64,000 bases of DNA from a virus (Duplodnaviria; Caudoviricetes), in IMG/VR virus record IMGVR_UViG_3300005080_000001, positions 68,519-132,518 of that record; one strand, given 5' to 3'. The notes beneath the pieces were generated by a model. It had not been told where the DNA came from. It did not search any database and worked only from the letters and a program-made list of their open reading frames with translations. This document shows, one piece after another, positions 10,960 through 63,898 of the stretch; the first letter of the stretch is position 1, and each line of letters begins with the position of its first letter. The translations under genes and the position numbers were made by a program.

Positions 10960-11059
10960 AAACAAAAGTATTGCAATTACAAAAGGTTCATGATATCTTA
11001 TAAGAGTAGCAAGTGGCAGTAAGCCATTAAAAATAAATAACAAAACAAAAGTATTGCAA
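10960..11059 (+). promoter_or_regulatory. Paired repeat motif and promoter upstream of dnaE
   Basis: Motifs at 10960 and 11043; TTGCAA-17-TATCTT with TG extension. Confidence 0.7.
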
Positions 11060-11083
11060 TGACTTATGAGGAGGATTAGGAAA

Positions 11084-14000
11084 TTGACAACAGTATCAAT
11101 TAAAACATCAGATTTACCATCCAATGTATTTAGCGATATGTTCTACACGGCAATTCATTTACACACAGACTTATCAAACCAAAACATGGTTGAGGTAGTT
11201 AATACCTATAAGCAATATATCGACAAAGCAGTTGAAATGGGGCATAAAGCTATCGCCTTCACAGAACACGGTAATGTACTAAGTTGGTATAATAAGAAGA
11301 AGTATGCTGAGTCCAAAGGGTTAAAGTACATTCATGGTTGTGAAGTTTACGTAACACTGACTCTTGAAGAGAAGAAGCGCGACAACTTCCATATGATCTT
11401 ACTTGCCAAGAACCATGAAGGGTTCAAAGAATTAAACAAGATGGTATCAACTGGATTCGATAGAAAGGGCAACAACTTCTATTACAATCCACGTATTTCA
11501 TGGGAAGATATTCAGAACACATCTGACAATATTATCATTTCAACAGCTTGTTTGGGCGGTATTGTCTGGCAGTTACACATGAACCGTGCAGGCAGTGTCT
11601 ATTCAGAAAGGGAACTTGCAAAAGTTATTAAATGGTTTTCTGAGAACAAGCATCGTGTTTTCTTAGAAATTCAGCCTCATAGACATCTTGAACAGATTCA
11701 ATACAACAGATTATTGAAGAAGATTTCTGAACAGACTGGAATCCGCTTAGTAGCAGGATCTGACACACATGCTTTAAATGAAGAGTACGATAAGGCTCGT
11801 AAGGTACTTCAAAAGGCAAAACGTATTACATTCACGGATGAGGACAGTTTTGATTTAAGCTTCCATTCATATGAGAAGATGTTTAAAATGTTCCAAGCGC
11901 AATATACATTTACTGATGAAGAGATTCACCAAGCAATGCAAATGACAAACGTAATTGCAGATATGATTGAGCCATGGGACATTGATTACAGTAAGAAGTA
12001 TCCGCAGTTATACGATAATCCAGAGGAAGTATTCCAACAAAAGATTGCAGAAGGTATCAAGTATCGTGGATTGGATAAGAAGTCTTTAGAAGTAAGAAAG
12101 GCAAATGCAGAACGAATTCAGCATGAATATGAAGTATATAAAGCGAATGAAGCAATTAACTATCTTCTACTTGAGGATGCTGTTAAGTCATATGCACGTA
12201 GCCAAGGTGTACGATATGGATTTGGTCGTGGTTCGGTTTCTGGAAGCCAAATAGCTTATTTACTCCGCATAACTGAAATGAATGCCATTGATAGAAACTT
12301 AAACTTTGCACGTTTCATGTCAAAAGAGCGTATTTCTCTTGCGGATATTGATACTGACTTCCCACCAAATAAGCGACATATTGTACAAGAATGGCTGTTA
12401 AATCATGAAAAGCTACACTGCGCTCACATTATCACCTATAATACAATTGCCCTCAAGGGATGTATCCGTGATGTTGGTCGAGGACTAGATATACCGTTAG
12501 ATGTAGTAGATGAGATTGCAAAAGGTGTAGAGGATAACGAAATGTACTGGAGAGAACGTCATCCAGAACTATTCCATTATGTTGACCTTATTCAAGGAAC
12601 AGTAGTTTCAATTGGCGCTCATGCTTGCGGTATTGCCGTATCTCCAATTCCATTGGATGAAAACATGGGTACAATTACTACAATTGATGCAGAAACTAAG
12701 CAACCAGTTGTATTAACACAAATCAACATGAAAGAAATTGATGCTCAAAACTTCGTAAAACTTGATGTTCTAGGTCTTGATACAGTTGAGTTAATTAGTG
12801 AAGCCGTTGATTTAGCAGGTTTAAAATGGGAAAGTATTCTTCCAGAAAACCTTGATTCAGAAGACAGCGCAGTATGGGAGAGTGTCCTAGATAACAATAT
12901 TGGTATTTTCCAATGGGAATCAGACTTCGCTCATCAGATTTATAAAGACCTATTCAGCAAAGAAACGATTGAAAAGATTAAACAGGTTCATCCTAAGTTC
13001 TCATATATGGACTTATTCTCGCTTGGTAATGCGATTATCCGTCCTGCAGGTGCTTCTTATCGTGATGATGTAGTACAAGGTAACTTCTATGACAATGGTC
13101 ACGAAGTATTAAATAAATTCCTTTCTCCTACACTTGGACGACTTGCTTATCAAGAGCAAATTATCGACTTCCTTGTACAGTTCTGTGGTTACACAGGCGG
13201 TGAAGCGGACGTAATTCGTAGATCGATAGGTAAAAAGGATCGTGAAACATTAGAGAGACTACTACCAGAGATTAAGCAACGATTTATTGATACAATGATT
13301 GAGAAGTACGAGACTCGTAATGTAACGGCAGAGCAAATCTCTGAGCCTTTCATTCAAGTAATCCTTGATGCTAGTAACTACGGTTTCAGTATTAATCACT
13401 CAGATGCGTATAGTTGGTTAGGATATGCTTGTGCATGGTTACGTTATTACTATCCATTGGAGTTCATTACAGCCAATTTAAACGTAAATATCAGTAAACA
13501 GGAGAAGACTGCTAAGTTAGTAGAATATATGAAGTCTAAAGGCATTACTCTAAACGGTATTAAATTCCGTTATTCAAGAGCAGGTTACATGTTTGATAAA
13601 GAAACAAACTCTATTTACCAAGGTGTCGAGCCTATTAAGTTCTTAAATGCTCAAGTAGCAGAAGGACTATATAGCTTAAGAGGTAACCATTATGCAAGCT
13701 TTACAGACTTATTGATTGATATTAAAGATGGTATTACCATTATGATTGATGGCGATCCAGAACGTGTTGCAAGAATCAGAGATGTTTTCACGATCGATCA
13801 TGAAGATTTTAATCCAAAAGTATTGCAAAAGTTAGAGAAGGATGGTAAGATAGAATACGTGGAAGATAGAAGCGTTACTATCAACTCCAGACAAATGAAT
13901 ATACTAATCTCTTTAGGATATTTCAGCGAATTTGGTGGCAACAAAAAACTTCTAAGAATCTTTGAATTCTTCGAGAAGAACTACAAGAAGACACTTAAGC

Positions 14001-14416
14001 TGAAATCTAAAAAAGAACGTTATGCAAAAGTATTGCAATTTGAATTAGAACAAGTAGAGGAAAGTCTTTCATTGGTAGAACAATGTGAGTGTGAGTTAGC
14101 TTATCTCGGACATATCGAGACAAAGGATGTCAAAATGCTACCAAACATTATGATGCTTGTAGAAACACAAAAGAACAAGACGTACACTCGTGCAAAAGCT
14201 TATCAGTTTGCAACTGGTGAAGTTCGTGAATTCAAGATTGGTAGCCGTACATATGCTAACGTGCCATTTGAAGAAAGAGATGTTATCCAGATTATTAATG
14301 CCGAGGTTAAGCCGAAGAAGAAGAAGATTAACGGAGTATGGCAGAATTCAAATGAACAAGAATTATGGTTGAAAGAAGTTAAATTCATTCGAAAAGGTGG
14401 AGTAATTGGTGAGTAG
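11084..14416 (+). CDS. dnaE: DNA polymerase III alpha subunit (family C)
   Basis: PHP motifs HLHT, FTEHG; GRGS; ADIDTD; KLDVLGL; YQEQ; YGFSINHS. Confidence 0.96.
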   Translation: MTTVSIKTSDLPSNVFSDMFYTAIHLHTDLSNQNMVEVVNTYKQYIDKAVEMGHKAIAFTEHGNVLSWYNKKKYAESKGLKYIHGCEVYVTLTLEEKKRDNFHMILLAKNHEGFKELNKMVSTGFDRKGNNFYYNPRISWEDIQNTSDNIIISTACLGGIVWQLHMNRAGSVYSERELAKVIKWFSENKHRVFLEIQPHRHLEQIQYNRLLKKISEQTGIRLVAGSDTHALNEEYDKARKVLQKAKRITFTDEDSFDLSFHSYEKMFKMFQAQYTFTDEEIHQAMQMTNVIADMIEPWDIDYSKKYPQLYDNPEEVFQQKIAEGIKYRGLDKKSLEVRKANAERIQHEYEVYKANEAINYLLLEDAVKSYARSQGVRYGFGRGSVSGSQIAYLLRITEMNAIDRNLNFARFMSKERISLADIDTDFPPNKRHIVQEWLLNHEKLHCAHIITYNTIALKGCIRDVGRGLDIPLDVVDEIAKGVEDNEMYWRERHPELFHYVDLIQGTVVSIGAHACGIAVSPIPLDENMGTITTIDAETKQPVVLTQINMKEIDAQNFVKLDVLGLDTVELISEAVDLAGLKWESILPENLDSEDSAVWESVLDNNIGIFQWESDFAHQIYKDLFSKETIEKIKQVHPKFSYMDLFSLGNAIIRPAGASYRDDVVQGNFYDNGHEVLNKFLSPTLGRLAYQEQIIDFLVQFCGYTGGEADVIRRSIGKKDRETLERLLPEIKQRFIDTMIEKYETRNVTAEQISEPFIQVILDASNYGFSINHSDAYSWLGYACAWLRYYYPLEFITANLNVNISKQEKTAKLVEYMKSKGITLNGIKFRYSRAGYMFDKETNSIYQGVEPIKFLNAQVAEGLYSLRGNHYASFTDLLIDIKDGITIMIDGDPERVARIRDVFTIDHEDFNPKVLQKLEKDGKIEYVEDRSVTINSRQMNILISLGYFSEFGGNKKLLRIFEFFEKNYKKTLKLKSKKERYAKVLQFELEQVEESLSLVEQCECELAYLGHIETKDVKMLPNIMMLVETQKNKTYTRAKAYQFATGEVREFKIGSRTYANVPFEERDVIQIINAEVKPKKKKINGVWQNSNEQELWLKEVKFIRKGGVIGE

Positions 14417-15025: not shown

Positions 15026-15250
15026 TTGAAAAAACGTATTGAAAAGAAGTTTCTTAAGAAGAAGTATGGCAACGAGTATAAAAAGGGATATGGCGTAATC
15101 ATAGGAAACGAGAACCGCTTTCACGGATTTAAAATAGGCGACATCGTTAAGATTGTAGGTACTGAGTACGGTACTTTGAAGTGTACTAAAAAAGATGGCG
15201 AACTCGAACTTATGCAGTACGTAGAACGCAAACATATTAAACAATTATAA
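15026..15250 (+). CDS. Basic hypothetical protein
   Basis: AGGAGG RBS, TTG start. Confidence 0.65.
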   Translation: MKKRIEKKFLKKKYGNEYKKGYGVIIGNENRFHGFKIGDIVKIVGTEYGTLKCTKKDGELELMQYVERKHIKQL

Positions 15251-15276
15251 AACAAAAGTATTGCAACGAGGAGCGA

Positions 15277-15552: not shown

Positions 15553-16131
15553 ATGACTAAACAGGTATATATCGCAGGAGACATGCTTCCGAAAGGTTCT
15601 CAAATGCTTCGTGCATTAGAGCGTGAACAAATCAAAGAGATTGGCTTAGATTTCTATAATCCAATGGATAATAAGGAAATCAATTCGAAAGAAGAAGTAA
15701 GCAACGATGGACTAGCTGAACGAATTGTTAAAGCTGATACAGATGCAATTGAATCAAGTGATGTTATTGTAATCGAGCCACAACCATTCGCTTTAGGAAC
15801 AATGGTCGAACTTGGGCAGGTAAAAGGTCGCAAAGACCTTGCCAAACAAATAATCGCCATGGCTGACGATTTCAATGGTTCTGTCTCAGAATTACTAAAC
15901 CAAATTATTGAATTAGCTGAACAAGTTGATAACCAAAAGGTATTTCCTCATTACGAAGATATTCGTAGATTCCCAAATGCAGGAGCAGATGAAGTAGGGG
16001 ATCGTAGAAGCCTAGGAATCAACCAGTATGTATATGGCGTATGCTTAGACCTCACAGATGGCAAGGGCTTCTATGATTGGGATGAAGTATTGGCAGAACT
16101 TAAGAAAATCAAGAATGACCCAACAATATAA
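15553..16131 (+). CDS. Nucleoside 2-deoxyribosyltransferase family protein
   Basis: VYIAG, FYNP, D-x-x-AI..SD, GTMVELG. Confidence 0.85.
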   Translation: MTKQVYIAGDMLPKGSQMLRALEREQIKEIGLDFYNPMDNKEINSKEEVSNDGLAERIVKADTDAIESSDVIVIEPQPFALGTMVELGQVKGRKDLAKQIIAMADDFNGSVSELLNQIIELAEQVDNQKVFPHYEDIRRFPNAGADEVGDRRSLGINQYVYGVCLDLTDGKGFYDWDEVLAELKKIKNDPTI

Positions 16132-16170
16132 AACAAAAGTATTGCAATTAATATTTGTAGGTGCTACAAT
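16131..16170 (+). promoter_or_regulatory. Repeat motif overlapping sigmaA promoter
   Basis: TTGCAA-17-TACAAT with TG extension. Confidence 0.7.
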
Positions 16171-16199
16171 GTACCTACAAATATTATAGGGGTGAAAGT

Positions 16200-19174: not shown

Positions 19175-19271
19175 AAACAAAAGTATTGACATTAATCTAG
19201 TCAATTGCTACAATGATAAAGTATTAAGTTAGGAATTTACTAAAAAATATACTTAAACAAAAGTATTGCAT
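19175..19271 (+). promoter_or_regulatory. Paired repeat motif and sigmaA promoter of recD2
   Basis: AAACAAAAGTA-TTGACA-17-TACAAT; second motif at 19255 abutting AGGAGG. Confidence 0.8.
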
Positions 19272-21574: not shown

Positions 21575-21668
21575 AAACAAAAGTATTGCAACTAAAATTA
21601 AAAGGTGGTATAATTGATTTTGTGAGGCACTAAATTTATTTATACCACTTAAAACAAAAGTATTGCAA
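21575..21668 (+). promoter_or_regulatory. Paired repeat motif and promoter of nrdI-nrdE
   Basis: TTGCAA-17-TATAAT; inverted repeat GTGGTATAA/TTATACCAC; second motif at 21652. Confidence 0.8.
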
Positions 21669-21681
21669 AGAAGGCGAGAAA

Positions 21682-22056: not shown

Positions 22057-22060
22057 TATA

Positions 22061-24158: not shown

Positions 24159-24248
24159 AAACAAAAGTATTGCAAAAATAATCAAGCTATGCTATTATTA
24201 AGGGGTCGATAATTTTATATTATCACCTCTTAAACAAAAGTATTGCAT
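24159..24248 (+). promoter_or_regulatory. Paired repeat motif, promoter and leader hairpin
   Basis: TTGCAA-17-TATTAT; hairpin 24198-24233; second motif at 24232. Confidence 0.75.
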
Positions 24249-24723: not shown

Positions 24724-25763
24724 CAAAAACAAAACCTACATTGAAAGAATTAAGTGACAACATTAACAGCCGTATCAAGGGTGTCTCGGTTCACAAGGCT
24801 GTTAACTGGAATCGACAAGTAGACGGCTTTACATTAGCTTTCTGGGATCAAAACATCAAACAAATGTGGGTTGATACAGAATTCGTACCTAGTAAAGACC
24901 GCAGTGTATGGGAGCGATTAGATCCAAAGGTACAAGAGGCTTATAAGAAAGTACTTGGTGGATTAACTCTATTAGATACGAAACAGGGTACGATTGGAAT
25001 GCCTAAGATTGCTGAACAAGTAGAGGAATTACAGCGTAAAGCGGTTCTATCATTCATGGGAATGATGGAGAATATCCACGCAAAATCTTATTCTACGATC
25101 TTCACAACCTTGTTAACTGAGGTTGAGATTGATGAAGTTTTTGATTGGGTAGAGCAAAACCAGTATTTACAATTCAAAGCAGATCAAGTTACTTATTACT
25201 ATGAAAATATTAAAGATGATAAGACTCTATATCTTGCTATGATGGCATCTGTTTTCCTAGAGTCATTCTTATTCTACAGTGGCTTCTTCTTACCTCTATA
25301 CCTAGCAGGTCAAGGCAAAATGGTTGCAAGCGGAGAGATTATTAAGAAGATTATCATCGATGAATCCATTCATGGTGTATACGTTGGATTACTTGCACAA
25401 GAACTATATGCAAAATTAACTCCAGAAGAGCAGGAAGAAGTAGATTACGAAACTGCTAGTCTAATGGACGAACTAATGGAGAATGAGTTCAAATACACAG
25501 AAGAGGTTTACTCTGAGATTGAACTAGATCATGATGTTAAGAGTTTCCTATATTACAATGCTAATAAAGCACTTATGAACCTTGGCAAAGAGCCTAGATT
25601 CGAAGAAAAACGTATCAACCCAATCGTAGAGAACGGACTAAGCACTGAAACTGCTACACATGATTTCTTCTCTACTAAAGGATCAAGCTATCAAAAGGCT
25701 AAACATCGTAGCTTAGTAGATGAGGACTTTGTATTCCCTAACATTGAAGAGCCATTAGTATAA
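24720..25763 (+). CDS. nrdF: Class Ib ribonucleotide reductase beta subunit
   Basis: AVNWN, GLTLLDT, ENIHAKSYS, LESFLFYSGF, DESIHG, HDFFS. Confidence 0.97.
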   Translation: MTKTKPTLKELSDNINSRIKGVSVHKAVNWNRQVDGFTLAFWDQNIKQMWVDTEFVPSKDRSVWERLDPKVQEAYKKVLGGLTLLDTKQGTIGMPKIAEQVEELQRKAVLSFMGMMENIHAKSYSTIFTTLLTEVEIDEVFDWVEQNQYLQFKADQVTYYYENIKDDKTLYLAMMASVFLESFLFYSGFFLPLYLAGQGKMVASGEIIKKIIIDESIHGVYVGLLAQELYAKLTPEEQEEVDYETASLMDELMENEFKYTEEVYSEIELDHDVKSFLYYNANKALMNLGKEPRFEEKRINPIVENGLSTETATHDFFSTKGSSYQKAKHRSLVDEDFVFPNIEEPLV

Positions 25764-25811
25764 ACCAAAAGTATTGCAATAAACTATAAAACGAAAAGAG
25801 GATTTCTTACT

Positions 25812-26595: not shown

Positions 26596-26663
26596 TAATA
26601 AATGAATTAAATCACTAACACAAATAAAGCAAATGTATTGCAAATAATAGGAGGCAATTAATA

Positions 26664-27740
26664 ATGACACAATCAATTTTAAACGAAGAGACAAAGGTAA
26701 AAGTATTCTCACATAATGACTTAGATGGTATCGGATGTGGTATCGTAGCAAAACTAGCATTTCCAGATGCACATGTAACATACTGCGGTTATAATAACAT
26801 TGACGAAAAGGTAAAAGAGTTTATCGAAACAGAAGCATACAAATCTTATGATCAAATATTTATCACTGACATCTCAGTAAACAAAGAAGTAGAAGAGTTA
26901 ATCAATGCCACAATTGCTGTCGACCCTTATACAAGCATTAAGCTTTTAGACCATCATGCAACGGCTACGCACTTAAATGAAAACTTCTGGGCATTAGTTG
27001 CTCCACGAGGCATTCATGGCAAAAATAGTGGAACGAACATGTTGTACGAATTCTTAGTAACTAATGGATTCCTTAAAGGTTATATTTACAGCGATCCTTT
27101 AGAAATATTCGTTGAAAAGATTCGTAGATACGATTCTTGGGAGTGGAAAGAAGATTATGACGATACAGAGGCATCTTCACTTAATGATCTGCTATGGCTT
27201 CTAGGGCATAAGAATTTCGAGAAAACCTACTTAAAGAGACTTCGTTACCTTAAACATGGTATTGTAAGCTGTGGTTCTTGGATTGGAATGTTTAGCGATG
27301 CTGACAAAGCAGTATTAGACGTTGATCGTGATAAGAAAGCAAATTATATCGATCGCAAAGAAAAGCAAATGATTATTGGTCGATTAGTTGGCAAGAACGT
27401 TGGATATGTATTCGCAGAGCAGTACATCAGTGAACTAGGTAATGCATTATCTGAACGACATGAAGAACTTGATTTCATTGTAATCATCGACATGGGTAGT
27501 AAAAAGGTGTCTTACCGAACTGTAAAAGACAACATTGACCTTGGCAAAGATGTTGCTAGTCACTTCGGAGGCGGTGGACATTCAAAAGCTTCTGGTAGTC
27601 AGCTAGATGTTGATGCAGTTAAGATGACAATCCCAATGCTATTCGGTAGCAAAAAGCTTGTTAAACAGCTTGTACAGCTTATTACACGTAAAGGTTTCAT
27701 TGGCAAGATTGGAAAACTTGTTGACAGATTTACTAAATAA
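26664..27740 (+). CDS. DHH/DHHA1 phosphoesterase (NrnB-like)
   Basis: SHNDLDG, ITD, LLDHH, SYR, GGGGHSKASG. Confidence 0.88.
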   Translation: MTQSILNEETKVKVFSHNDLDGIGCGIVAKLAFPDAHVTYCGYNNIDEKVKEFIETEAYKSYDQIFITDISVNKEVEELINATIAVDPYTSIKLLDHHATATHLNENFWALVAPRGIHGKNSGTNMLYEFLVTNGFLKGYIYSDPLEIFVEKIRRYDSWEWKEDYDDTEASSLNDLLWLLGHKNFEKTYLKRLRYLKHGIVSCGSWIGMFSDADKAVLDVDRDKKANYIDRKEKQMIIGRLVGKNVGYVFAEQYISELGNALSERHEELDFIVIIDMGSKKVSYRTVKDNIDLGKDVASHFGGGGHSKASGSQLDVDAVKMTIPMLFGSKKLVKQLVQLITRKGFIGKIGKLVDRFTK

Positions 27741-27801
27741 GAGTATAATTTAAGGTGAGGTAGGAATCATCCTTACTTCACCTTAAACAAATGTATTGCA
27801 A
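27721..27801 (+). promoter_or_regulatory. Consensus sigmaA promoter, leader hairpin and repeat motif variant
   Basis: TTGACA-17-TATAAT; stem 27749-27787; AAACAAATGTATTGCAA at 27785. Confidence 0.8.
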
Positions 27802-28010: not shown

Positions 28011-28369
28011 AGAGACTAATTCAGAATCTAATTCAAAAGCTATTTAAAAAGAAGAAACAAAATAAGAAGATACATGTAATCGTCTTCACTGAAACTCGTG
28101 ATATGGAACGATACTTCAAATTATTCATATATCTGCTTGGAGACAAAGTAGAACATTCCCGTATGTCTATGCATAGACAAGAGATTGTAGCAAGCGACAT
28201 GATAGTGAAATTCCTAAGACCAAATGATAATTCAAGAGGTCATAGAGCGCATTACGTATTTAATTTAACTCAAAATAAAGAGTTTGACATGCTTGTAGCA
28301 AAGCCGATTGAAAGACCTTGGCTTATGGATGATTTTAGGGGCGATCCTAAATTCTCAAAACTATTTTAA
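28007..28369 (+). CDS. Hypothetical protein
   Basis: ORF track. Confidence 0.65.
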   Translation: MKRLIQNLIQKLFKKKKQNKKIHVIVFTETRDMERYFKLFIYLLGDKVEHSRMSMHRQEIVASDMIVKFLRPNDNSRGHRAHYVFNLTQNKEFDMLVAKPIERPWLMDDFRGDPKFSKLF

Positions 28370-28404
28370 AACAAAAGTATTGCAATAACAGGAGGAATTA
28401 CATT

Positions 28405-28716
28405 ATGAAATTAAATTTAGAACTGAAACAAGTTGAACGCACAATTAATAAAGGTGATGTCTTGGTCTTCAAGAAGGATACTAATCAGAAAATTTGTTAC
28501 TACCTTGTTGTTGAAGACATGTTGAATAGGAAGCAATTTGCTCTGGTAAATTTAGCAACGAATAATATTATGGGTATCTTTTCGGATCATTTATACCAAT
28601 TAGTCGACAAAGTTAAAGATAACTTTGAAAATCTTGAATTTGTCGAAGTGATTACTGCAGAAGACTTAGAATTGAAACGTAAATACGTGATTAACAGTGT
28701 GACTAGCAATGACTAA
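28405..28716 (+). CDS. Hypothetical protein
   Basis: AGGAGG RBS. Confidence 0.7.
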   Translation: MKLNLELKQVERTINKGDVLVFKKDTNQKICYYLVVEDMLNRKQFALVNLATNNIMGIFSDHLYQLVDKVKDNFENLEFVEVITAEDLELKRKYVINSVTSND

Positions 28717-28918
28717 CAAAGAAGTCTTTCTCTACTTTTTAGAGCAGTGTTGGTATAGCTTAATGATTTATTGGTTCATAGTGTTCCTTGAATGGTACAC
28801 ACATCAAGGATTGAAATTGTGGATGCCTTCATGCTTCTTATATCTGCTACTGGTGTCATTATTAAATACAGTACTGCAGATGAGAGTTGAAGATAAGAAA
28901 CGAAAACATAGAAACTAA
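28709..28918 (+). CDS. Small two-TM membrane protein
   Basis: Two hydrophobic segments and basic tail. Confidence 0.6.
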   Translation: MTNKEVFLYFLEQCWYSLMIYWFIVFLEWYTHQGLKLWMPSCFLYLLLVSLLNTVLQMRVEDKKRKHRN

Positions 28919-28956
28919 TAAAAGACGGATATTATTAATTATATTAGGAGGCAATT

Positions 28957-29439
28957 ATGGCTAAATATCAAAAAAATGACAAAATCAAATTTGCAAAGGA
29001 TACAAGTGTTCCATTAAGTCCATTTCATTCAATGACTATTCGTAAAGGTAAAGAGTTTGAGGTTATCGGTGTATCAGCTGTTGATTACAAAATCATGAAC
29101 ACTAACAGTTCTACTATGATACTACCTCGTTCTATCGTTGAAGAATCAACTATTTCAATTCGCCCTGCAGAAGTTAGCAACAAGCGATACTCAAAGGTCA
29201 TCGAAACTGGTTTAACTTATGGCAAAGCTGTAGACAAGGCGATCCATGAAGGTAAGAAAGCTACTCGTGCGATTTGGGATGGATACTGGTGTATGCAAAC
29301 TATTGTAGGATTACAAAACGAAGATCTTCCTCAGTGGAATGGTGAATTTCTAGTAGCAGTATTAAAGAATGGTGGATATGCAATTGCAACTCCATATCAA
29401 GAAGATATGCATGCTACTGACTGGATGATAGTAGAATAG
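28957..29439 (+). CDS. DUF2829 / Tad2-like domain fused to an N-terminal domain
   Basis: LTYGKAV...EGKKATRAIW...TPYQEDMHATDWMIVE. Confidence 0.75.
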   Translation: MAKYQKNDKIKFAKDTSVPLSPFHSMTIRKGKEFEVIGVSAVDYKIMNTNSSTMILPRSIVEESTISIRPAEVSNKRYSKVIETGLTYGKAVDKAIHEGKKATRAIWDGYWCMQTIVGLQNEDLPQWNGEFLVAVLKNGGYAIATPYQEDMHATDWMIVE

Positions 29440-29449
29440 GGAGGCAGTT

Positions 29450-29683
29450 ATGAAGATAGCGATCACTCAAATCAAGCAACTAATTCAGTATCATCAAAAC
29501 GAACGAGACAAACAATTGGCTTTCTATGATACAAAAGAATATAAGTCACAGATGCATCCAGAAGCAGATACTGAGTTTATCAAAAAGCACACGGCTTTCA
29601 TCTACAATGAACTAATTGATGAACTAAACAAGGCTATATCTATCCTTGAACAACATGGAGAATTAAATGAAGAAACGATCTAA
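29450..29683 (+). CDS. Hypothetical protein
   Basis: GGGAGG RBS. Confidence 0.65.
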   Translation: MKIAITQIKQLIQYHQNERDKQLAFYDTKEYKSQMHPEADTEFIKKHTAFIYNELIDELNKAISILEQHGELNEETI

Positions 29684-29765
29684 GCGAATACCTTATGGAC
29701 TATTTGAATTCATTTGCGACTTACTTGTCGTCATAGTAGAAATCATAGTGTGGTGGTGAGAAACA

Positions 29766-29942
29766 GTGGAAGAGAAAATAACAATTGAACTAGAAAGCAA
29801 GCTTGATCTAATGTTAATCCTTGGAGCGCTTGCAAAAGCACAACAAGTATACGGCATCGTAGATCCTAGATATGTAGACCTACGAAAAAGACTTAATCAG
29901 CAGGCAATAAAGCTTTCTCCAGAAATAGAAAACGTTGAGTAG
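29766..29942 (+). CDS. Small hypothetical protein (58 aa)
   Basis: GGTG RBS, GTG start, followed by hairpin. Confidence 0.5.
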   Translation: MEEKITIELESKLDLMLILGALAKAQQVYGIVDPRYVDLRKRLNQQAIKLSPEIENVE

Positions 29943-30019
29943 ATGGGGCTTTCCCATCTATTTCATTATATACCCGTTGAGGAGGTTTTAATGAAATTCA
30001 TTAGAACCGAGGGATAATA

Positions 30020-30592
30020 TTGAAAGATAAGTTTATAATACAATATGATGAGTTACCAGTTAGCGTAAACAACTATTTAAAGCCTGCTTCAAGGATTGTT
30101 GCAGGAAGACCTCTTGCATACTTATACGAGACAACAGAGGCAAAGGACTTTAAGAAACGGTTCGGTGCATACCTCAAACGAGAAGTTAAGAAGCAGGAAT
30201 GGGACAAGTCAATTACATCAGAAGGTCACTGGATTTTAGAGTGTATCTTTGTGCAAGCAAGAACGAATCAAGACAACAATAACTACTATAAGATACTATG
30301 CGACACTTTAACGGGGATCGTAATAGAAGACGATAAGAACATACTGGTTCAGACAAAAATGGTCATGTATGATGCTAAAAACCCTAGATTCATAGCAATC
30401 TTAAAGAAAGCACCGTACATAGGAATATTTAAAGACGATGCTAAATATAACGAATTCATTGAGCATAACTGTTTAAATTGCAAGAAGAACCAAGAGAAGT
30501 GTTCGATATTAAAGAAAGCAAGAGAAGGTAGAATACAAGAGGAAGTAGAATTAAATAGTAACCCAATAGTATGTCAGAAGAAGAAACCATAA
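30020..30592 (+). CDS. RusA-like Holliday junction resolvase
   Basis: PVSVNNY, DNNNYYKILCDTL, IEDDK. Confidence 0.72.
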   Translation: MKDKFIIQYDELPVSVNNYLKPASRIVAGRPLAYLYETTEAKDFKKRFGAYLKREVKKQEWDKSITSEGHWILECIFVQARTNQDNNNYYKILCDTLTGIVIEDDKNILVQTKMVMYDAKNPRFIAILKKAPYIGIFKDDAKYNEFIEHNCLNCKKNQEKCSILKKAREGRIQEEVELNSNPIVCQKKKP

Positions 30593-30614
30593 TCGCATGG
30601 TTTCTTCTTCTTTT
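30576..30614 (+). terminator. Intrinsic terminator
   Basis: AGAAGAAGAAACCAT/ATGGTTTCTTCTTCT stem plus T-run. Confidence 0.75.
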
Positions 30615-30677
30615 ATATTCCAGTTGACTTTATATTAATTCATTATTAATATAAATCCATGCATACCCAAAGGAGTT

Positions 30678-31631
30678 TTGACATTGGAAGATGTAGAGAG
30701 ATTGTTTAGAGAAGAGATACGTAATAAGAAGAGGGTTGGTAGTAATATCTTTTCTCGTGTATCAACTAGAAAAGGTGGAAGCAATCAAGCCTTAAGGACT
30801 CCATATCTTTATATGACACGCAAGGAACGTAAGAATCTGAACGGAGAGGTTAGGGTATATAATATGAGTGATATTATCTCTTATGATGAGTTTATAAATA
30901 AAAGCGAAAAAGAACAGCGTGAACTCTTGGTATTTTGGCGCAAGAATTTCAAAACAAAGGAAATAATTGAAGGTATGGGTGTTTCAAAAAATCCAATCTA
31001 CAAACTCTTAGATAAATACGATATTCCTAGAGTTGATGCTAGAGGCAGAGGAAGTAACAATATTGCGATATCACAGGATGAGATTGATCGTTATAAAAAC
31101 GAGATGATCCCATACGAGGAATTTAGAAAGCTAAATTCAGCCCAAAAAGATGAGTTACTTGAGGTATATCTTGATAGATACGTTGCTGTAGCTGAATTGT
31201 CACGAAATTGGACAGGATCTGATGTCGGCTACTTATATAGTATAAAAAACAGAATTGATAAGAAAAAGAAGAAGCTTGAGGCAATTGATGATAATGCTGT
31301 ACAGAATGAAGAGGTAAATGAAGAGGCAGTAATTACTTCACCAGATGAAACAGTAATTAATCCTGTCATTACAGACACAGAGTCTTCTTCAGCTGATAAA
31401 TACGACAATATAGATAATAAAATAGATGAAAAAAGTGATATTATAGATTCTAAAAATGTGACTGCAGATGGTCACGACTTGGACGTAGACATAAAGACAC
31501 AGTCATTCACATTCGATTTAAAGGGTAAATATAGCGCCAAGACAATAATTAAAAGGTTGCAACTTGCTCTTGATCTGCTTGAGGACGAGGACGAATTGCT
31601 GAACTTAGAGATTAAGATAACTAATCAATAA
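30678..31631 (+). CDS. Hypothetical protein with repeated helical (HTH-like) units and acidic linker
   Basis: Two I(S/P)Y(D/E)EF...Q-x-ELL repeats. Confidence 0.6.
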   Translation: MTLEDVERLFREEIRNKKRVGSNIFSRVSTRKGGSNQALRTPYLYMTRKERKNLNGEVRVYNMSDIISYDEFINKSEKEQRELLVFWRKNFKTKEIIEGMGVSKNPIYKLLDKYDIPRVDARGRGSNNIAISQDEIDRYKNEMIPYEEFRKLNSAQKDELLEVYLDRYVAVAELSRNWTGSDVGYLYSIKNRIDKKKKKLEAIDDNAVQNEEVNEEAVITSPDETVINPVITDTESSSADKYDNIDNKIDEKSDIIDSKNVTADGHDLDVDIKTQSFTFDLKGKYSAKTIIKRLQLALDLLEDEDELLNLEIKITNQ

Positions 31632-31859
31632 TAATCATGATAATATTGCGCCAATTACAAAGAATGTGATATATTAAAGCATACGTTAAAAAAGAAGCCG
31701 TGGGGCTTCTTTTTCGTTTTTCCATAAAATAACACATAGAGTGTATTGAGACGTTGTAGTATAATTAAGGAATTAGGGAGAAAAGTCTAACAACAGATAT
31801 TGCGATACTTGCTGATAACATAAAGAGATAATTTAACAAGTATTAAATTAGGAGGTAGT

Positions 31860-32084
31860 TTGGTGTTTGACATTATTGGGAATGGTGAAAAACACGACTT
31901 TAGTTACCCTATTAAACACCTAGAAGAAAGACTATCGTTTTTGCAAACTATAAAGTCTTCAGTGTTAACTTCTTCTAATGTAGGATATGGTTGGGACAAG
32001 TATCTTTACAAAATAGATGAAAAGATAGAACAGTATACAATAGCTATTGAAGTACTAAAGTCGCTTATGAAAGTAACTGGATAA
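31860..32084 (+). CDS. Hypothetical protein
   Basis: AGGAGG RBS; terminator follows near 32096-32122. Confidence 0.6.
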   Translation: MVFDIIGNGEKHDFSYPIKHLEERLSFLQTIKSSVLTSSNVGYGWDKYLYKIDEKIEQYTIAIEVLKSLMKVTG

Positions 32085-32297
32085 TGAGTTTGGGAAGGAG
32101 AGATTATTTCTCTCCTTTTTTTGCGTTTTCTTCTATTATATAAACATTGTAATATTTATAAACTTTCAGAATTTATTTTCTCAAAAAGTATTTACAAAGT
32201 AATTACAATGTAATAACATAATAACCGTGATAGTAATCACTAAGTAATTACTGTGTGACTACTATAAAAAACATATAGGCAAAGGAGATTGATTTGG

Positions 32298-33206: not shown

Positions 33207-33283
33207 TTGCAACTTGTGATATAATGAAGGATAGAGTGGATTTATTCCACTCTATTTCTTTATTAAGGGAGTGCGAGTTTATT

Positions 33284-33508
33284 ATGGAAGTTAAACGTAA
33301 ATTAAGAAGGGTCGGGAATGCGATGGGAGGAGTTACGCTTCCACAGGAAATGATGAAAAGTATGAACCTTACTGAAGGTGACTATGTTTACATAAGTTAT
33401 GAAAATGACACAATTGTTATAAGAAGTCAACCTAAACAGGATCAACATGAAGATGACATATTTCGGCAGAAAGTAATTTCAATAATAGATGAATATATGA
33501 AAAAGTAA
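33284..33508 (+). CDS. AbrB/MazE/SpoVT-family DNA-binding protein
   Basis: RKLRRVGNAMGGVTLPQEMMKSMNLTEGDYV. Confidence 0.85.
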   Translation: MEVKRKLRRVGNAMGGVTLPQEMMKSMNLTEGDYVYISYENDTIVIRSQPKQDQHEDDIFRQKVISIIDEYMKK

Positions 33509-33870: not shown

Positions 33871-33987
33871 CCAAACATTATATCATTTATTGAAGAAGTG
33901 TACAATCCCCTATTTATTGTATTTATTTACCAATAGACAACTTGATATCTCTTGCAATAATCAGAATAAGCATGTTACAATTGACAT

Positions 33988-44827: not shown

Positions 44828-44914
44828 TTGCAATACTTTTGGTTAAGAGGAGTTGATAAAAAACCAAACTCCTCTACCAAAGTTTATTATAATTGAATTA
44901 CATTACTTTGTAAA
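44828..44914 (-). promoter_or_regulatory. Promoter, leader hairpin and repeat motif
   Basis: TTTACA-17-TATAAT; AGAGGAGTT/AACTCCTCT stem; motif next to RBS. Confidence 0.75.
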
Positions 44915-44915: not shown

Positions 44916-47900
44916 CTAGTTCTTAGACTTCGCTTTTTGCAATGCTAATTGTGGCAATCCTAGAATTGCATCTTGAAGACCTTTTCCATCAGTTACGTTA
45001 GGGAATTCAAGCTTAGAAATACTGATAGCCGTGTTAGCAGATGAAGTTGCCTTTGTTGCATTTACAGATGTATTAGGAAGTTTTGCTGTTATTACATTAG
45101 CAAATATCTCCCCTAGCTGAGAACTGATATCTATAAATGTATTTTTAAGTTCATCTGTCATAGTTTTTGTAGCAGTTACGAGATAAGCATCTGCAGGCGT
45201 ACCTTTAATAATACTATTATTATCGTCAAGGTATTTTGCATACTCTTTTCCTAGTTCATCGATATTAGCGCCTAGTTCTGGATACTTCGAGATGATGCCC
45301 TTGAATGCTTCTCCTAGATCTTTGATAGCATCTTTAAAGTCATTAACATTATCGTATTGACCATTTTGAGCATCCTGCATGATTTTTTCAAGCTGACTTA
45401 GATAATCTTCTTTAGCCTTATCTTCCATTTGCTTTAATTCAATCTGTGCTTGCTTCAAGTCATCTTGAGCCTGCTTAACTTGTGTTGCATCAGCAGTGTA
45501 CGACCAGTCCCAACCGCCATTTGCATTCTTCTGCAATGTTTGAACAGTTCGCTGTTTATTTATGTTGTCAACTTTTTGTTGTAACTCAATAATATCAAGC
45601 TGTTTGTTCAAGTAGTCCATCTCGAATGCGCTAACCTCTTTTTGCTTATCAAGAAGATCAAGTTTCTCCTTGTTAACCGTAGTTCCCAAGTCAGCCATGC
45701 GTTGATACATTTTTTCAAGAGCAAGTTCCTTCTCTAATCCAGACAGCCATAATTGCTGATGAACACTCCAAGCATCATGAGACTTTCCATCAAACAACTG
45801 CTTCTCAATTGATTTCGTAGTAGATTCGAATGAGTTTGCAAGGATGTTCTTGTTCATTTGAACCAACTGCTGATTACTGTCATTTAACTGCTGATTGTAT
45901 TCCTTTAACTTCTCATTGATAGTATTCCATTCGAAGCTTCCTTCGTCTAGTTTCTTCATTTGAGATTGAAGGCTTTCAATATTTTTCTTGATTAAATCGT
46001 GTTTACCTTGCTCTGAACCGAATAGAGCAGTTAGTAATGCACCCTTAGAGCTATAAGAACCAGTTCCAATTGCAGTTACTAAGTCGTATGTTGTCTGTAG
46101 ATCGCTCTGCATATCAGACTGTTTGTTGATTATTTCATCCATCAAGCTAAACTCAAAATCATAACGTGTTTTAATCGTGTCCTTGATTTTGTTTTGAGCA
46201 TCAATATTAGACTGTTCGTACTCAGCGATTTGATCGTTTCTTTTCTGAACATCGTCATCTGTTAATGCATCATTTTTCAGTTCATTTTGAAGTTCTTTGA
46301 TAGCATCATTATTTCCGTTTATCTGTGCCTTGAAATAATCGATATCAATACCAAAGCTACTAATGATATAATCATTTGTAAGCTTTTTACGCTTCTCTGA
46401 ATCTGTTTCCCTAGCTAAATTGTCTTGATATTTCTTCTGTAGTTGAGCCTTCTTCTTCTCTACATCTCCAAAATACTTCTCAAGCTTCTTAGCTGTTTCT
46501 GCGTAGTTTGTGTCAATACCTGCGATACCTGCTAAATCTCCATATTGTGAACTAATAGCTGTATAATTAACATTATTGCCATTTACATAATCCGTCTTCA
46601 TTGTAAACAAGTTTTTATACATTTCACTATGAATTCTTAATGTTTCATTGGCAACTCCGCTTTCACGGTCAATGTTCTTCTTAGCATATGCAGTAAGAGC
46701 ATCGTCAACCTGTTTTTCAAGGGTAATACGTTCTTTCGCTAACTTTTCATAAGCATTGTCTCTACTTAAATCTAGCGTACTATCAGTAGAACTGTAAAGG
46801 TCACCAAGTTTCGTACCGCTTAAAAGACCGTCCCGCAGATTCTGGATATTATTGTCGTTCTTACCAATGTTCTTCTCTAATTCATTATTAAACTTAGCAA
46901 CATCCTGTGTAACTCTATCAAATTCAAGATCGCTAATAGCTTGACGATATTTCAAGATATTATCTGCTTGTGCTTTAATAGAAGAGCCTAGGCTGTCTAA
47001 TGTTTGTTTAAGCTGTTCTCCAGTCTCTTTATGCTGAATACTAGCTTGAGACATAACATTAAACTCATACATGATGTCATTAAGATTTTTCTTAGCCTTA
47101 TCCATTGCCTGCTCATTCATCATAAGAGCAAGTTCTTTATCTCCAGATCCTATCAAGTTAAGCTTCAAATCAAATTGAGAATCTGAATTGGCAATTTGCT
47201 GAGTTAATACATCAATCCACTTAAGCTTATCTTTCCAAGCATCTAATTCGATTTGGATATTGGCAAGGTCTTTCTTTTTGTTAAGATCGGCAATGCTAGA
47301 ATCTATCTCCTTAATTTTGTCATTAATCTGAGACATATCGTTATTGATAGAATGCCATTTATTAAGTAATTCATTAGCCTTGCTTGCGCTATCTCCTTGA
47401 AGATCTCTAGCGTGACCTAGGTTGTATATAGCATTATTAGACGTATCCACATTAAATCCATATCCACTAAGCTGATTAAGAACGGAGTCAATCTCACTAT
47501 TCTTTTGAGAGTAGTATGTTTGAAGATTTGCCTTTTGAGCATTTTCATTAGCTATCTGTCGATTGTAAATACCGATTAATGCTTTTTGATCTTCTCCTGC
47601 ATCAGTGATAGCACGTTCTAGGTCTTTCATAACATCTTCTAGACTTGACTGTCTATCTTCTGTGTTCCAGTATCTCCAAACATTTTCATCTACACGAGCA
47701 GGCGGAGATGTGTCGCCACTCGAAGTGTCTGCATCTACAACAGCGCCTGTATCAGATATTGGAGTAGTTGTACCAGTAGCAACACTTGCCGATGAAACTG
47801 CACCTACACCAACACTTGCTGATGAAATTCCAGTAGCACCAGATGCTTTAGGAGCGCCAGTTCCGATAGCAACAGAAGATCCAAATCCACTTTGAAGGAA

Positions 47901-50900
47901 GTCATGCCCCTTCTTAACCCAATCTGGTACACTGAAGTCAACATTGATTAATTTCGACATCGGTTGACTCATCCATTCGCTAATCTTATCCAACCAACTA
48001 AGATGAGGAACGCTAATATCAACGTCAACGCCTTTCTTTGGAGGAATCTTATTAGCAGATTCTGTAACGCCATCCGTTAATCTAATAGTTTCTGCAGTTT
48101 TACCATTGGTAGAGTCAATCGCTCCTTGAACCATTTCCTCTGCAGTCTTTCTTGTTCCTGCTTGATCCTGTGCGGATGCCTTAGCTTGAGAGTCACCATC
48201 AATCTTCTTAGCAGAAGCCTTTAATGCTTCTTCACCAGTCTTCATTTGCTCTGTTTGCTCTTCTTTAAGCTTACCAACATGTTGTGATATCTCTTCTCGA
48301 AGTTGTTTATCAGAGTTTAGCGTACTTAGTTTAACACCATCAAGTTCTGGATAAAGCGCAGTTAATTTTCTCAACTCTTCACCAGACATTTCTTGACTAC
48401 CATTCAGCTTTCCTTGAAGGTCGTTAAGTTCGCCAACGTTCTGTTTCATCTGAGCGTAAGCAGGTAGCATCGTTTGAAGAGATGTCACCAACTGCTTGCT
48501 ACTCATATCAGCTTTTCCGATAGACTCGCCTTGAGCAAGTAATGCAGTTCCGTTTTCATTAATAGCCTTTGCTTGTGCTTCGTAAGTTGATGTTGAACTC
48601 TTAATCTGAGATGTTAATTCTTCTTCATGTTTCTTCGAACTTTGAACACGACCATCCCACAGTTTATAATCTTCCGAGTTAACTGGGTACTGATCTCTTG
48701 TTTTAGCGAAGTTTTTAGTTACCTGCTCTGCATCTGCTAACTGAGCCTTAAGGCTTCCTATGTCTTTTATGGTAGTCTTGATACCACTCTTACTAGACCC
48801 AAATAAATCACCAGACTTATCTACAATCTTAATGACTGATTTAGCCTTTGTTTTATCAAGTTCTTCTTGAAGAGCCTTAAGTTTATTCAGAATGTCTTTT
48901 GTATCATTGATATCAACTCGGATTTTAACACCATTCTTATCCTTTAATCCTAGGTCTTCTGCCTGTGAATTAAATTGGTCTCGGAATTTAAGGAATTCAC
49001 TCTTATCAAGTTCTCCTTTAACATTACCCTTCTTATCAATAGCGCCACCTTTTTCAAGTTGCTTCTTCATGCTATTGATACCGTTTTGCTCTTTCTCAAC
49101 AGTACCATTGATATACATGTTTCCACCCTTGAACTTTTTCATCATGGTGTCAAATTCTTGTGTTGATATCTTGGTTTTATTTGTAACCTTATCGATTGCA
49201 TCACCAATTTTACCAAACACATCAACGCCCATAAGATCTAGAGCCATTAGGATTTCACCGACATAAGGAATTGCTTTAAGCGCTGTCTTACCTGCTAATT
49301 TAGCGCCACCACCAAGGATTCCTTTAATACCGCCACGTCCTGCCATACTCATAAGAGCGCCTGTTCCTGCTTGAGCGCCACCTGCTCTACCTGCTCTACT
49401 TGCAGAACCGCCTGCTCCACCTGTACCGCCAGTTCCACCGCCTGCTCGTCTACCCATCCTAGTTCCTGCTAAAGCGGAAGCTTCTTCTGCTCTTGTGAAT
49501 GCGCCAACCCTAGTAGTGGCACTATCAATCTGTCTCCCAACGTTTTTCCAAGCAAGTAGAAGTTCACCTGCACCTGCCATAGCGCCTTTAGCGCCAGTAG
49601 CGACAGTGTCAAATAATCTCTTAACCATATTAACACTTGCATGACCAACAATACCTGCACCAAGAAGTTTTAACATGTTCATTAGAGAGTCGTTATGAGC
49701 CAAGTTACTTGCGATTTCAAGACCTTTGATTAAGCCTCCCATTAAGTTAGACATAAGACCCTTTGAATCGCCCAGTGCATTCATAAACTTCATCCACTCT
49801 GACTTAAGTGTTGCAAGCTTGAATTTTAATGAATCAGACTGCTTTGAGAACTCGATATAAGCAGAACCATCGATTCCTTTACCCATCTGTTCTCTAGCTT
49901 CTTTTTCCGCACGAATTACAGTATCCCATTGTGAGATAATACCATTTAATACGTTGGCATGTTCCTTACCTGCTAGGTAGTAAATAGCAGTATTCTTTTG
50001 TTCATCTTTAAGTTGACCCCATTTATCATGAAGTTTTCCAACAGCATCTGTTAAACTCTTAGTTGAGTTAAGATCGATACCGATACTCTTAAAGAAGTCA
50101 AATTTGGTTTGTTGCTGTGGCGTTACTTGAGATTTAATTAAGTTGTAGTTCATCGAAATGGCTTTCATTGCCGTACCGATACGTTCTCCACCCATACGTG
50201 TAGCTTCCTGCGCTCCTGTGATCATACCAGTTAATTCTTGGAATGATACACCTGCAGTTTTTACCGTAGTAGCAGAACGCATATAAGCCTTCCCAAGATC
50301 ATCCATTTCAATAGCGTTGTTATTTGCCGTGTTATTCATGATATTAATAATGTCGTTTGCTTTAACACCTTGTTCCGTAAATGCTTTCAAAGGTACTGAC
50401 ATATATTTAACCATGTCATCTGCAGTGATATTACCAACGAATGCCCCTACTTGAGAGACTTTTGCTAATTCTTGAGACTTTTCGAAAGTTTCACCTGCTG
50501 TTACCCAAGTTTCAACTGCTTTCATATATTCGTCTGCTGTAACACCTAATGAAGATGCAACGTCATATGATGTCTCTTTGAAGCGTTGCAGTGATTCATC
50601 GGAAGCGTTGGCAACCTTTGCAACTAGCGTAAACGCTTCGTCAATCTTTAGCATTGGCTCTAGCATCATCTCAAAGCCCATTCGAGCATTTGCATAAACA
50701 GTGTATGGATCAACTAAACCACCAGTATCATTGAATGATCTGTCTCGTTCACGAGCGATACTTCTACGGCTATTTAATTCAAGCTGTGCATTAGAAGCTT
50801 GCTTAATTTGTTCGATTTCTTTCATTCGTTGCGCTGTAAGCTTCTCTTCCGCAGAAAGAGAGTTTTTTATAGCATTAGCTTTTTGCTCTTCTGCATGTAG

Positions 50901-52490: not shown

Positions 52491-52527
52491 TAAATTAACA
52501 CCTCACTTGCAATACTTTTGTTTAATG

Positions 52528-54669: not shown

Positions 54670-54891
54670 TTTTTACACTCTCCCTTGATTGCAATACTTT
54701 TGTTTAATAACTACTTTATAATCTTAACAAAAAAGAGAACAAGTGTCAACACTTATCCTCTGATTTGCAAAACTTTTATTTAACCTAACAGCTTCAACCA
54801 CCCTCTTAAGGGCTGTGGGTTTTTCGGGGATACTGGTTTGTTAAATTCTACTACTATCCCTTGTTCGATTTTTAATAAAACCGCTGTTTTA

Positions 54892-55431: not shown

Positions 55432-55614
55432 TTACTCAGATTGGCTTTGGCTTTCGCTTTCTCTCTGTAACTGACTGTACTTCAATAAAGCCTTAAGTCC
55501 GATGTTCTCTACAGTTAACTGATGAATCATTTCTTGATACTGTACAATTAATAGTTCTGCAGGAACGCCTTGATTTTGATTTTGATTTTCCAATAATATA
55601 CACCCCTTTTTCAA
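55432..55614 (-). CDS. Small coiled-coil protein
   Basis: Probable TTG start after AGGGGTG; LTVENIGLKA. Confidence 0.55.
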   Translation of the reverse strand: MKKGCILLENQNQNQGVPAELLIVQYQEMIHQLTVENIGLKALLKYSQLQRESESQSQSE

Positions 55615-55669
55615 AAGTCTTTATATCCTATTATAAAGACTTTTGATTTAATTTGCAATACTTTTGTTT
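55611..55669 (-). promoter_or_regulatory. Repeat motif with sigmaA promoter whose -10 lies in a long inverted repeat
   Basis: TTGCAA-17-TATAAT; TCAAAAGTCTTTATA/TATAAAGACTTTTGA. Confidence 0.75.
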
Positions 55670-63781: not shown

Positions 63782-63803
63782 GTTTTATAATTTCACCCCT
63801 TAC

Positions 63804-63898
63804 TTGCAATACTTTTGATTAATGATTTATTAATTTTGGGCGTAATTAGCCCACATTTATTGTACCACTCCTACATTTTTATTGCAATACTTTTGATT
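63804..63898 (-). promoter_or_regulatory. Paired repeat motif, promoter and leader hairpin of the tail fibre gene
   Basis: TTGCAA-17-TACAAT; TGGGC/GCCCA stem; second motif 78 bp downstream before AAGGGGTG. Confidence 0.8.

Follow-up and report, generated by a model that had tools for sequence, protein, structure and literature searches.

A polar, genome-wide network of asymmetric sites at promoters and ribosome-binding sites of an SPbeta-like Bacillus phage

Results

Gene content of the region

A 16-bp motif recurring at promoters and ribosome-binding sites (RBSs) was analyzed in a 64,000-nucleotide stretch of viral DNA (the window), which is the final 64 kb of the single 132,518-bp virus record IMGVR_UViG_3300005080_000001. 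Positions are those of the window unless marked as genome positions. A first-pass annotation, made from the letters alone, had described pairs of this motif as a stereotyped cassette in which a motif carrying a -35 is followed by a -10 box, a leader hairpin, a second motif and an RBS. The proteins encoded in the window include a DNA polymerase III alpha (Pol III alpha)-type polymerase, a RecD2-like helicase, NrdE, a tape-measure protein, a giant tail-fibre-like protein and a Rap phosphatase. Comparison with SPbeta (AF020713) by tblastn gave homologs of its terminase (47% identity), YonG, YonN (an HU-like protein), YopP, YopR, YorI/J/L and NrdI/E/F, in similar order and at 23-53% identity. The virus is a large SPbeta-like Bacillus phage and a distant relative of SPbeta itself.

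The homolog of the SPbeta repressor MrpR (YopR) is encoded outside the window, by the open reading frame (ORF) at genome positions 47662-49044 (L006:7662-9044). It matches MrpR_N_CB (PF22822; 4.4e-15) and the solved MrpR/YopR structures 8a0a and 8bj6 (2.5e-13), and carries about 135 additional N-terminal residues that SPbeta MrpR lacks. This extension has no Pfam match and is weakly shared by its two closest homologs, those of G001 and G003. The gene of the MrpR homolog itself has a degenerate copy of the motif at its -35. A YonO-sized gene was not found in the phage genome; at the place of yonO lies a gene for a 346-aa protein with a C-terminal GerE/sigma-70 region 4 helix-turn-helix (HTH) domain (genome 17062-18102, - strand; L004:17062-18102; tandem motif pair upstream at 18371/18352), which may be a late-gene regulator.

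A polar network of asymmetric sites

Read at the positions listed in Table 1, the 16-bp motif is AAACAAAAGTATTGCA. It matches the window 34 times at ≤3 mismatches, against 2.05 expected and with none of 100 shuffles reaching 34, and the entire record 67 times at ≤2 mismatches. Nearly all of these genome copies (64 of 67) fall outside long ORFs. By position and strand, the motif strand is the gene strand for nearly all copies in all three genome arms: in the window, + strand copies occupy the + strand gene region below 28.4 kb and - strand copies the - strand gene region above 37.6 kb, and the sole exception is one 3-mismatch match. The core of the motif has 13 bp, AAACAAAAGTATT. As an asymmetric site of about 13-17 bp, it is present in more than 20 copies and in both genome arms of the phage studied here (G000, 67 copies) and of its relatives G001 (45) and G003 (69). 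In the phage studied here the sites occupy promoters as well as short gaps between genes, in a single orientation relative to transcription. The cassette of the first-pass annotation is a local subset of this genome-wide, polar site network. A literature search for the motif strings found nothing relevant.

Two classes of sites were distinguished. At class A sites, the final bases of the motif and the base after them form a -35 hexamer (TTGCAA or TTGACA), followed after 17 bp by the -10 box of a sigmaA-type promoter. These copies are the best-scoring promoter-like sites in a consensus scan, and many of their promoters are near consensus already (TTGCAA-17-TATAAT, some with an upstream TG); the motif spans roughly -46 to -31 and its 13-bp core -46 to -34. 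In class B, the motif ends 11-27 nt upstream of a start codon, directly 5' of the Shine-Dalgarno (SD) sequence with a gap of 0-12 nt, and often starts on the final base of the preceding stop codon. Where a promoter is present, class B motifs begin at about +27 to +37. Roughly 28 such RBS-proximal sites were counted genome-wide, and for seven of those in the window nothing above 8/12 of the promoter consensus was found within 130 nt upstream, so that they are operon-internal (Table 1). Reading the TTGCA of class B copies as a -35 was rejected because the -10 box would coincide with the start codon, and the idea that these copies are promoters for a phage RNA polymerase was dropped, since a polymerase gene of YonO or T7 size is missing from the genome.

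The pairs consist of a class A promoter site and, after it, the RBS-proximal class B site of the gene that this promoter drives. All seven tightly spaced pairs of the first-pass annotation were recovered, with spacings of 73 to 83 bp (Table 1), and the RBS-proximal site of pair 2 is retained in relatives even without the promoter copy. The succession of motif, -35 and -10 box holds in six of the seven pairs (TTGCAA/TTGACA, 17 bp, -10) and fails at 54781/54705; between the copies of this last pair lie a terminator-like hairpin (54736-54759) and a separate promoter, TTGACA (54744-54749)-17-TAAGAT (54721-54726).

Table 1. Positions of the motif pairs, promoter units and operon-internal sites in the window
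Feature	Position	Strand	Description
Pair 1, upstream (class A)	10960-10975	+	-35 TTGCAA 10971-10976; -10 TATCTT 10994-10999
Pair 1, downstream (class B)	11043-11058	+	Before RBS of DNA polymerase III alpha gene; spacing 83 bp
Pair 2, upstream	19175-19190	+	-35 TTGACA; -10 TACAAT 19209-19214
Pair 2, downstream	19255-19270	+	2 nt before RBS of RecD2-like helicase gene; spacing 80 bp
Pair 3, upstream	21575-21590	+	TTGCAA-17-TGgTATAAT; -10 at 21609-21614
Pair 3, leader hairpin (nrdI leader)	21603-21650	+	5' arm contains the -10 box
Pair 3, downstream	21652-21667	+	Before nrdI RBS; spacing 77 bp
Pair 4, upstream	24159-24174	+	TTGCAA-17-TATTAT; -10 at 24193-24198
Pair 4, leader hairpin	24198-24233	+	Extends from the -10 box to the downstream site
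Pair 4, downstream	24232-24247	+	Before an RBS; spacing 73 bp
Pair 5, upstream	40689-40704	-	-35 TTGACA; -10 TATGAT 40665-40670
Pair 5, downstream	40610-40625	-	Spacing 79 bp
Pair 6, upstream	54766-54781	-	2 mismatches; not a -35; spacing 76 bp
Pair 6, downstream	54690-54705	-	Starts only 15 nt after the -10 box
Pair 7, upstream	63883-63898	-	TTGCAA-17-TACAAT; -10 at 63859-63864
Pair 7, downstream	63805-63820	-	Before RBS of 2534-aa tail-fibre-like gene; spacing 78 bp
Motif-less promoter unit	27721-27800	+	TTGACA-17-TATAAT 27721-27749 (12/12); hairpin 27750-27786; class B 27785-27800
Motif-less promoter unit	44829-44875	-	TTTACA-17-TATAAT (11/12); hairpin 44846-44875; class B 44829-44844
Class A without downstream copy	16131-16185	+	Site 16131-16146; -10 TACAAT in loop of perfect 13-bp inverted repeat 16150-16185, whose 3' arm abuts the RBS
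Class A in inverted repeat	55611-55669	-	Site 55654-55669; 15-bp repeat 55611-55646 encloses -10 TATAAT
Operon-internal class B	6796-6811, 8794-8809, 15250-15265, 25763-25778, 26627-26642, 28369-28384	+	No promoter >8/12 in 130 nt
Operon-internal class B	52508-52523	-	No promoter >8/12 in 130 nt

Spacing of the paired sites

Among the promoter-type pairs of the three genomes, 16 of 26 are spaced at 71-90 bp, with a mode of 77-79. A test of these spacings for helical phase detected none for periods of 10-11 bp (R = 0.15-0.23; Rayleigh p-values around 0.5, ranging from 0.37 to 0.65). Measured from the end of the -10 box, the distance to the downstream site of a standard pair is 33-43 nt (the spacing minus 40); the two motif-less promoters, which have no upstream copy, give 35 and 41 nt. 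The lack of helical phase and the maintenance of this distance without an upstream copy therefore argue against DNA looping. What is constant is where the downstream site stands with respect to the promoter (about +27 to +37, just past the open-complex footprint), not a contact between copies, in keeping with either a roadblock close to the promoter or a leader module of fixed layout. Of the double operator that had been proposed to loop the DNA, two sites for one phage-specific DNA-binding protein, probably the MrpR homolog, remain the best fit, and the loop itself is not supported.

Leader hairpins are conserved by covariation in two leaders

Hairpins were scored by comparing their fold energy with that of dinucleotide shuffles. 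The sequence between the copies of a pair had been said usually to fold into a stem; this is strongly so in two of the seven pairs, at 21603-21650 (z -4.7) and 24198-24233 (z -5.9), the others being moderate or chance-like. The stem of pair 1 (11012-11028) is moderate (z -2.9), and those at 19219-19254 (z -1.9), 63837-63853 (z -1.9) and 40629-40657 (z -0.9) could not be distinguished from the shuffles. The two units of stem plus motif that had been noticed after motif-less promoters are both strong (27750-27786, z -6.0; 44846-44875, z -4.3). Genome-wide, a strong abutting hairpin was found at about 8 of the 28 class B sites.

Reading of the promoters at 21605 and 55611 agreed with the earlier remark that the -10 box itself lies in the palindrome. 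So it does at 16150-16185 and, in a weak form with 6-bp arms, after the promoter at 7276. Perfect 13-15-bp repeats that enclose the -10 box and have no downstream motif occur at 16150-16185, at 55611-55646, at genome position 64994 and at position 36381 of G001. A clean cassette is also present in one of the relative loci (L020:3013-3098), where a site is followed by 15-bp perfect inverted arms around the -10 box (z -8.1), then by a second site, 75 bp downstream, and by an RBS.

The first-pass annotation had further proposed that structure is conserved here without sequence, and had named covariation among orthologous leaders as the way to check it and a lack of covariation as part of what would refute it; covariation was found. 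Two leaders were tested formally, each with five relatives, and in both the stems differ, carry compensatory changes and covary. In the nrdI leader and in the leader at 24.2 kb all five relatives fold (z -3.7 to -6.9) with differing stem sequences, the five relatives having five different stems in the latter. Compensatory changes were found in 5 of 15 base pairs of the nrdI leader and in 5 of 8 of the 24.2-kb leader. The covariation scores were 0.29 against 0.18 in shuffles for the former (1 of 500 shuffles reaching the observed score) and 0.55 against 0.24 for the latter (0 of 500), and slid controls were all lower in both cases. A third leader (27.75 kb) shows the same conservation by eye in G001 and G003 (three genomes).

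In several cassettes the 5' arm of the hairpin overlaps or directly abuts the -10 box, and the predicted transcription start falls within the 5' arm or the loop. The one RNA run examined, related to this DNA by species label only, contained 0 reads of this phage. A transcript that begins about 7 nt after the -10 box would hold a truncated stem or the 3' arm only, and the full stem is therefore to be expected only in read-through RNA or in DNA. Read-through is expected, since no terminator-like site was found on the + strand in 19-29 kb. The G-U pairs of the abutting hairpins favour the sense strand (106 vs 44), and the sense fold is the more stable one in 58 of 83 folding windows, compared with 139 of 240 in-gene control windows under symmetric selection, which is a modest argument for a role as sense RNA rather than as a cruciform. 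No Rfam family matched the window at gathering score.

Three other explanations of the hairpins were rejected. They are not intrinsic terminators, as they are followed by AAACAAAAG and not by a T run. Roadblock-assisted termination fails on geometry, as the active site of a blocked polymerase lies about 14 nt upstream of the block and the 3' arm would not yet have been made. An antisense promoter is possible in the nrdI leader, whose bottom strand reads TTGCAA-18-TATAAA; as a general cause of the repeat it was discarded, because the remaining cassettes have no such promoter and the base following TG co-varies in both arms.

Concerted motif variants in related phages

Relative loci were recovered with the helicase as query. 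The locus with a helicase of 84% identity (L008) has the identical motif and identical pairs, and the one at 79% (L019) carries the variant AAGCAAAAGAATTGCA, with GA in place of GT (...AAAGAATT...). In G003 (L022; helicase 66%) 69 copies of AAACAAAAGTATTGA(C/T)A share the core of the phage studied here. In G001 (L009; helicase 67%), a Bacillus gaemokensis scaffold, the motif is AAACAAAACCATT and all 45 copies have CC (...AAAACCATT...). In L020 (helicase 63%) only (A/T)AAAGTATTGCA is kept, with a shortened left half. The motif thus varies in concert among relatives, from GT to CC or from GT to GA, and since tens of dispersed copies change together, the reader should be encoded by the phage rather than by the host. 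The G001 copies end in GCA at promoters and mostly in AAA before RBSs. As its class B copies lose GCA and keep the 13-bp core, the -35 is not read there and the core that is read has 13 bp; class A sites need the -35 hexamer separately from this core.

Few of the shared proteins are less conserved than the MrpR homolog (44% identity in G001, 36-40% in G003). Such low conservation is typical of immunity repressors, a line of evidence that is only suggestive. When the ORFs of the phage were compared with those of G003 (same core) and G001 (CC variant), no protein tracking the motif stood out. Among the fetched loci of the helicase group at 36-40% identity no abundant repeat was found, and the 40 kb around the MrpR homolog of Psychrobacillus phage Perkons (L083) contain no comparable site network. 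Perkons has a repeat of its own kind, an extended -10 with discriminator, TATTATAATTAAG, in about 20 copies.

Discussion

We consider it probable, by analogy with SPbeta, that the motif network consists of operators of an MrpR-type master repressor that are equivalent to the SPBREs of that phage and are also stoperator-like. In SPbeta, MrpR is the master lysogeny repressor, a monomer in solution with a tyrosine-recombinase fold, which binds SPBRE in chromatin affinity purification sequencing (ChAP-seq) and electrophoretic mobility shift assays (EMSA) and was cross-linked to DNA at the RBS-abutting SPBREs of yopV and yopM (PMC10516654). As read from the SPbeta sequence, SPBRE is roughly ACAAATACAAAWAATATGTATA in about 11 copies, which lie over promoters, abut RBSs (yopV, yopM) and form a pair at yonX, all oriented with the genes. 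Both elements are thus repeated and co-oriented, found at promoters, against RBSs, in pairs and in the repressor's own operon. The two differ in sequence, the motif here being AAACAAAAGTATTGCA, and in layout: the present motif ends in the -35, whereas SPBRE spans -35 to -10, and many copies here are operon-internal and have no promoter. The repressor homolog has its extra N-terminal region of about 135 aa, and the leader hairpins have no counterpart seen by eye in the SPbeta leaders that were read. With these differences, the motif is best understood as a distant relative's counterpart of SPBRE that has multiplied about six-fold and entered gaps inside operons, and the MrpR homolog would be, by homology and analogy, its most likely reader.

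The motif would accordingly serve as an asymmetric DNA site bound by a master repressor of the tyrosine-recombinase fold. At class A sites, repressor bound at about -46 to -31 would exclude RNA polymerase, and class B sites would act as orientation-specific, stoperator-like roadblocks between a stop codon and the next RBS, each halting any starting or read-through polymerase before it enters the gene. The C1 operators of phage P1 are likewise asymmetric (about 17 bp) and dispersed in many copies over a large temperate phage; to our knowledge they mostly overlap promoters, and we know of no RBS polarity or cassette geometry among them. Another parallel is offered by the stoperators of Cluster A mycobacteriophages, asymmetric 13-mers of which more than 20, all in a single orientation, are distributed over promoters and short gaps between genes, and which are read by a monomeric repressor (L5 gp71, TipsytheTRex repressor; PMC9283540). 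The motif shares with them an asymmetric site of 13-16 bp, tens of copies in both arms, placement at promoters and in short gaps, a single orientation and phage-specific variants. On the other hand, the hosts and phages are unrelated, the presumed reader here has a recombinase fold whereas the Cluster A repressor combines an HTH with a stoperator domain, and the elongation block is here only predicted. Conserved hairpins adjoining the sites, as seen here, are not described for stoperators in PMC9283540.

Several observations weigh against an MrpR-type repressor as the reader. The motif does not match the SPBRE sequence, with only 2 matches (≤2 mismatches) in SPbeta, and its copy number is about 67 compared with about 11. 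The link between the MrpR homolog and the motif goes no further than homology and analogy, and no roadblock activity is reported for MrpR in PMC10516654. The divergence of the repressor does not parallel the change of the motif either: the G003 homolog is only 36-40% identical yet goes with the same core, and that of G001 is 44% identical yet goes with CC. Finally, a site centred near -40 could equally serve an activator, and a class B site abutting an RBS fits an RNA-level operator equally well.

The last of these points leads to the possibility that class B copies act as RNA, as an A-rich single-stranded box 5' of the SD sequence, often presented by a hairpin and bound by a phage RNA-binding protein. 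The box would be a RegA-like translational operator or a processing/stability site, and class A a separate DNA use of the same sequence. The 0-12 nt between motif and SD sequence, the strict sense polarity, the bias of G-U pairs and folds towards the sense strand and the covariation of the stems would all be accounted for. We nevertheless regard this as unlikely, since class A copies precede the transcription start of the promoter to which they belong and must act on DNA, and since SPbeta MrpR was cross-linked to DNA at SPBREs that abut RBSs (PMC10516654). Strong hairpins, moreover, accompany only the minority of class B sites given above, and a candidate RNA-binding protein was not identified. 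An activator site, or phage-specific promoter upstream element, at which a factor bound near -40 recruits host RNA polymerase, would suit the core at -46 to -34, where class II activators typically sit, and the left half of the motif (AAACAAAAG), which resembles a proximal UP-element subsite. The 346-aa GerE/sigma-70 region 4 HTH protein, found at yonO's place in a genome with no YonO-sized gene, could provide such a factor. The class B copies, however, would have to be remnants or weak secondary sites: about 28 of them have no -10 box at a usable distance, with the start codon 11-27 nt off, and the conserved, oriented copies inside operons would be left without a role. As many class A promoters are in addition already near consensus, we judge an activator site to be quite improbable.

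Two further readings treat the cassette as a unit. A cooperative double operator, whose bound proteins touch and loop or wrap the approximately 78 bp containing the promoter, could draw on the recurrence of pairs at 71-90 bp in three genomes and on the HU-like protein encoded by the phage. It appears very unlikely, given that helical phasing is lacking, that the distance from -10 box to downstream site is the same without an upstream copy, that most sites are unpaired and that MrpR is monomeric in solution (PMC10516654). The first-pass annotation had also considered a nut-like RNA element. For such antitermination of the nut or put type, a hairpin and box in the nascent RNA would modify RNA polymerase for read-through of terminators, and a covarying hairpin beside a conserved box just downstream of promoters is what would be looked for. 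However, the upstream copy at about -46 to -31 is outside the transcript that it drives, and the transcript of a promoter whose -10 box is overlapped or abutted by the 5' arm has no full stem. The genome has 67 copies, not one or two for each operon, and many of them are operon-internal and without a promoter; 19-29 kb offers no + strand terminator-like site to be read through, and no Rfam family matched. We therefore hold antitermination to be extremely unlikely.

Alongside repression by an MrpR-type protein, the hairpin would be a separate accessory element, probably acting as sense-strand RNA, with the full stem in read-through polycistronic RNA and a truncated stem at the 5' end of the promoter's own RNA. 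Our best guess is an intercistronic or leader stem that halts 5'-to-3' decay and insulates the RBS, so that a decay barrier or insulator ahead of the RBS would be its most likely function; the protected 5' leader suggested by the first-pass annotation is plausible. The 5'-terminal stem-loops that stabilize Bacillus mRNAs, for example in the aprE and ermC leaders, resemble the present hairpins in being stable stems at or near the start of the leader, just upstream of the RBS. They differ in that the hairpins studied here run up to or into the -10 box with their 5' arm, a full stem being predicted only for read-through RNA and a truncated one for the promoter's own RNA. A more far-reaching combination, to which we would give only a small chance, is that the repeats enclosing the -10 box and ending at the downstream site are a cis switch for read-through RNA, working together with a stoperator-type silencing that arose independently in the repressor lineage. 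Only read-through RNA would then form the full stem, presenting box and RBS or shielding the downstream cistron, and a recombinase-fold repressor lineage would have evolved on its own the orientation-dependent silencing of a 130-kb phage.

If operators of an MrpR-type repressor are indeed what the motif represents, about 67 polar sites would allow a recombinase-fold repressor to silence a 130-kb phage. The stoperator strategy, known to date from actinobacteriophages alone, would have been invented a second time and independently, and the concept of SPBRE would widen from about 11 sites at promoters to a network covering the whole genome. The GT, CC and GA variants would offer a ready-made system for studying the evolution of immunity specificity.

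Additional features of the region

Two copies with 2 mismatches each (13812-13827 and 14022-14037) lie within a gene, towards the 3' end of the Pol III alpha ORF, and both encode K-V-L-Q. The second is found at the same place in relatives and partly tracks the variant of each phage: its counterpart is ATACAAAAACATTGCA in G001, with V changed to T, and L020 and G003 retain AAAGTATTG. These in-gene copies may be functional sites or merely a conserved peptide. Outside the window, the copy at genome position 50283 (- strand) is the only clearly reverse-oriented one in the + strand arm and lies near the MrpR homolog/ligase region.

Where the two gene arms converge, a 9-kb island (28385-37656) is free of the motif. 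It holds a Rap phosphatase gene (34528-35640; RapH_N and TPR domains; rap-phr) and small ORFs, and is a candidate for the genes that stay active in the lysogen. The repeat is long enough to tangle assembly graphs, and contigs of public assemblies (Logan) are broken or mis-joined exactly at motif copies (19278, 21595-21669, 27775-27801 and 28367).

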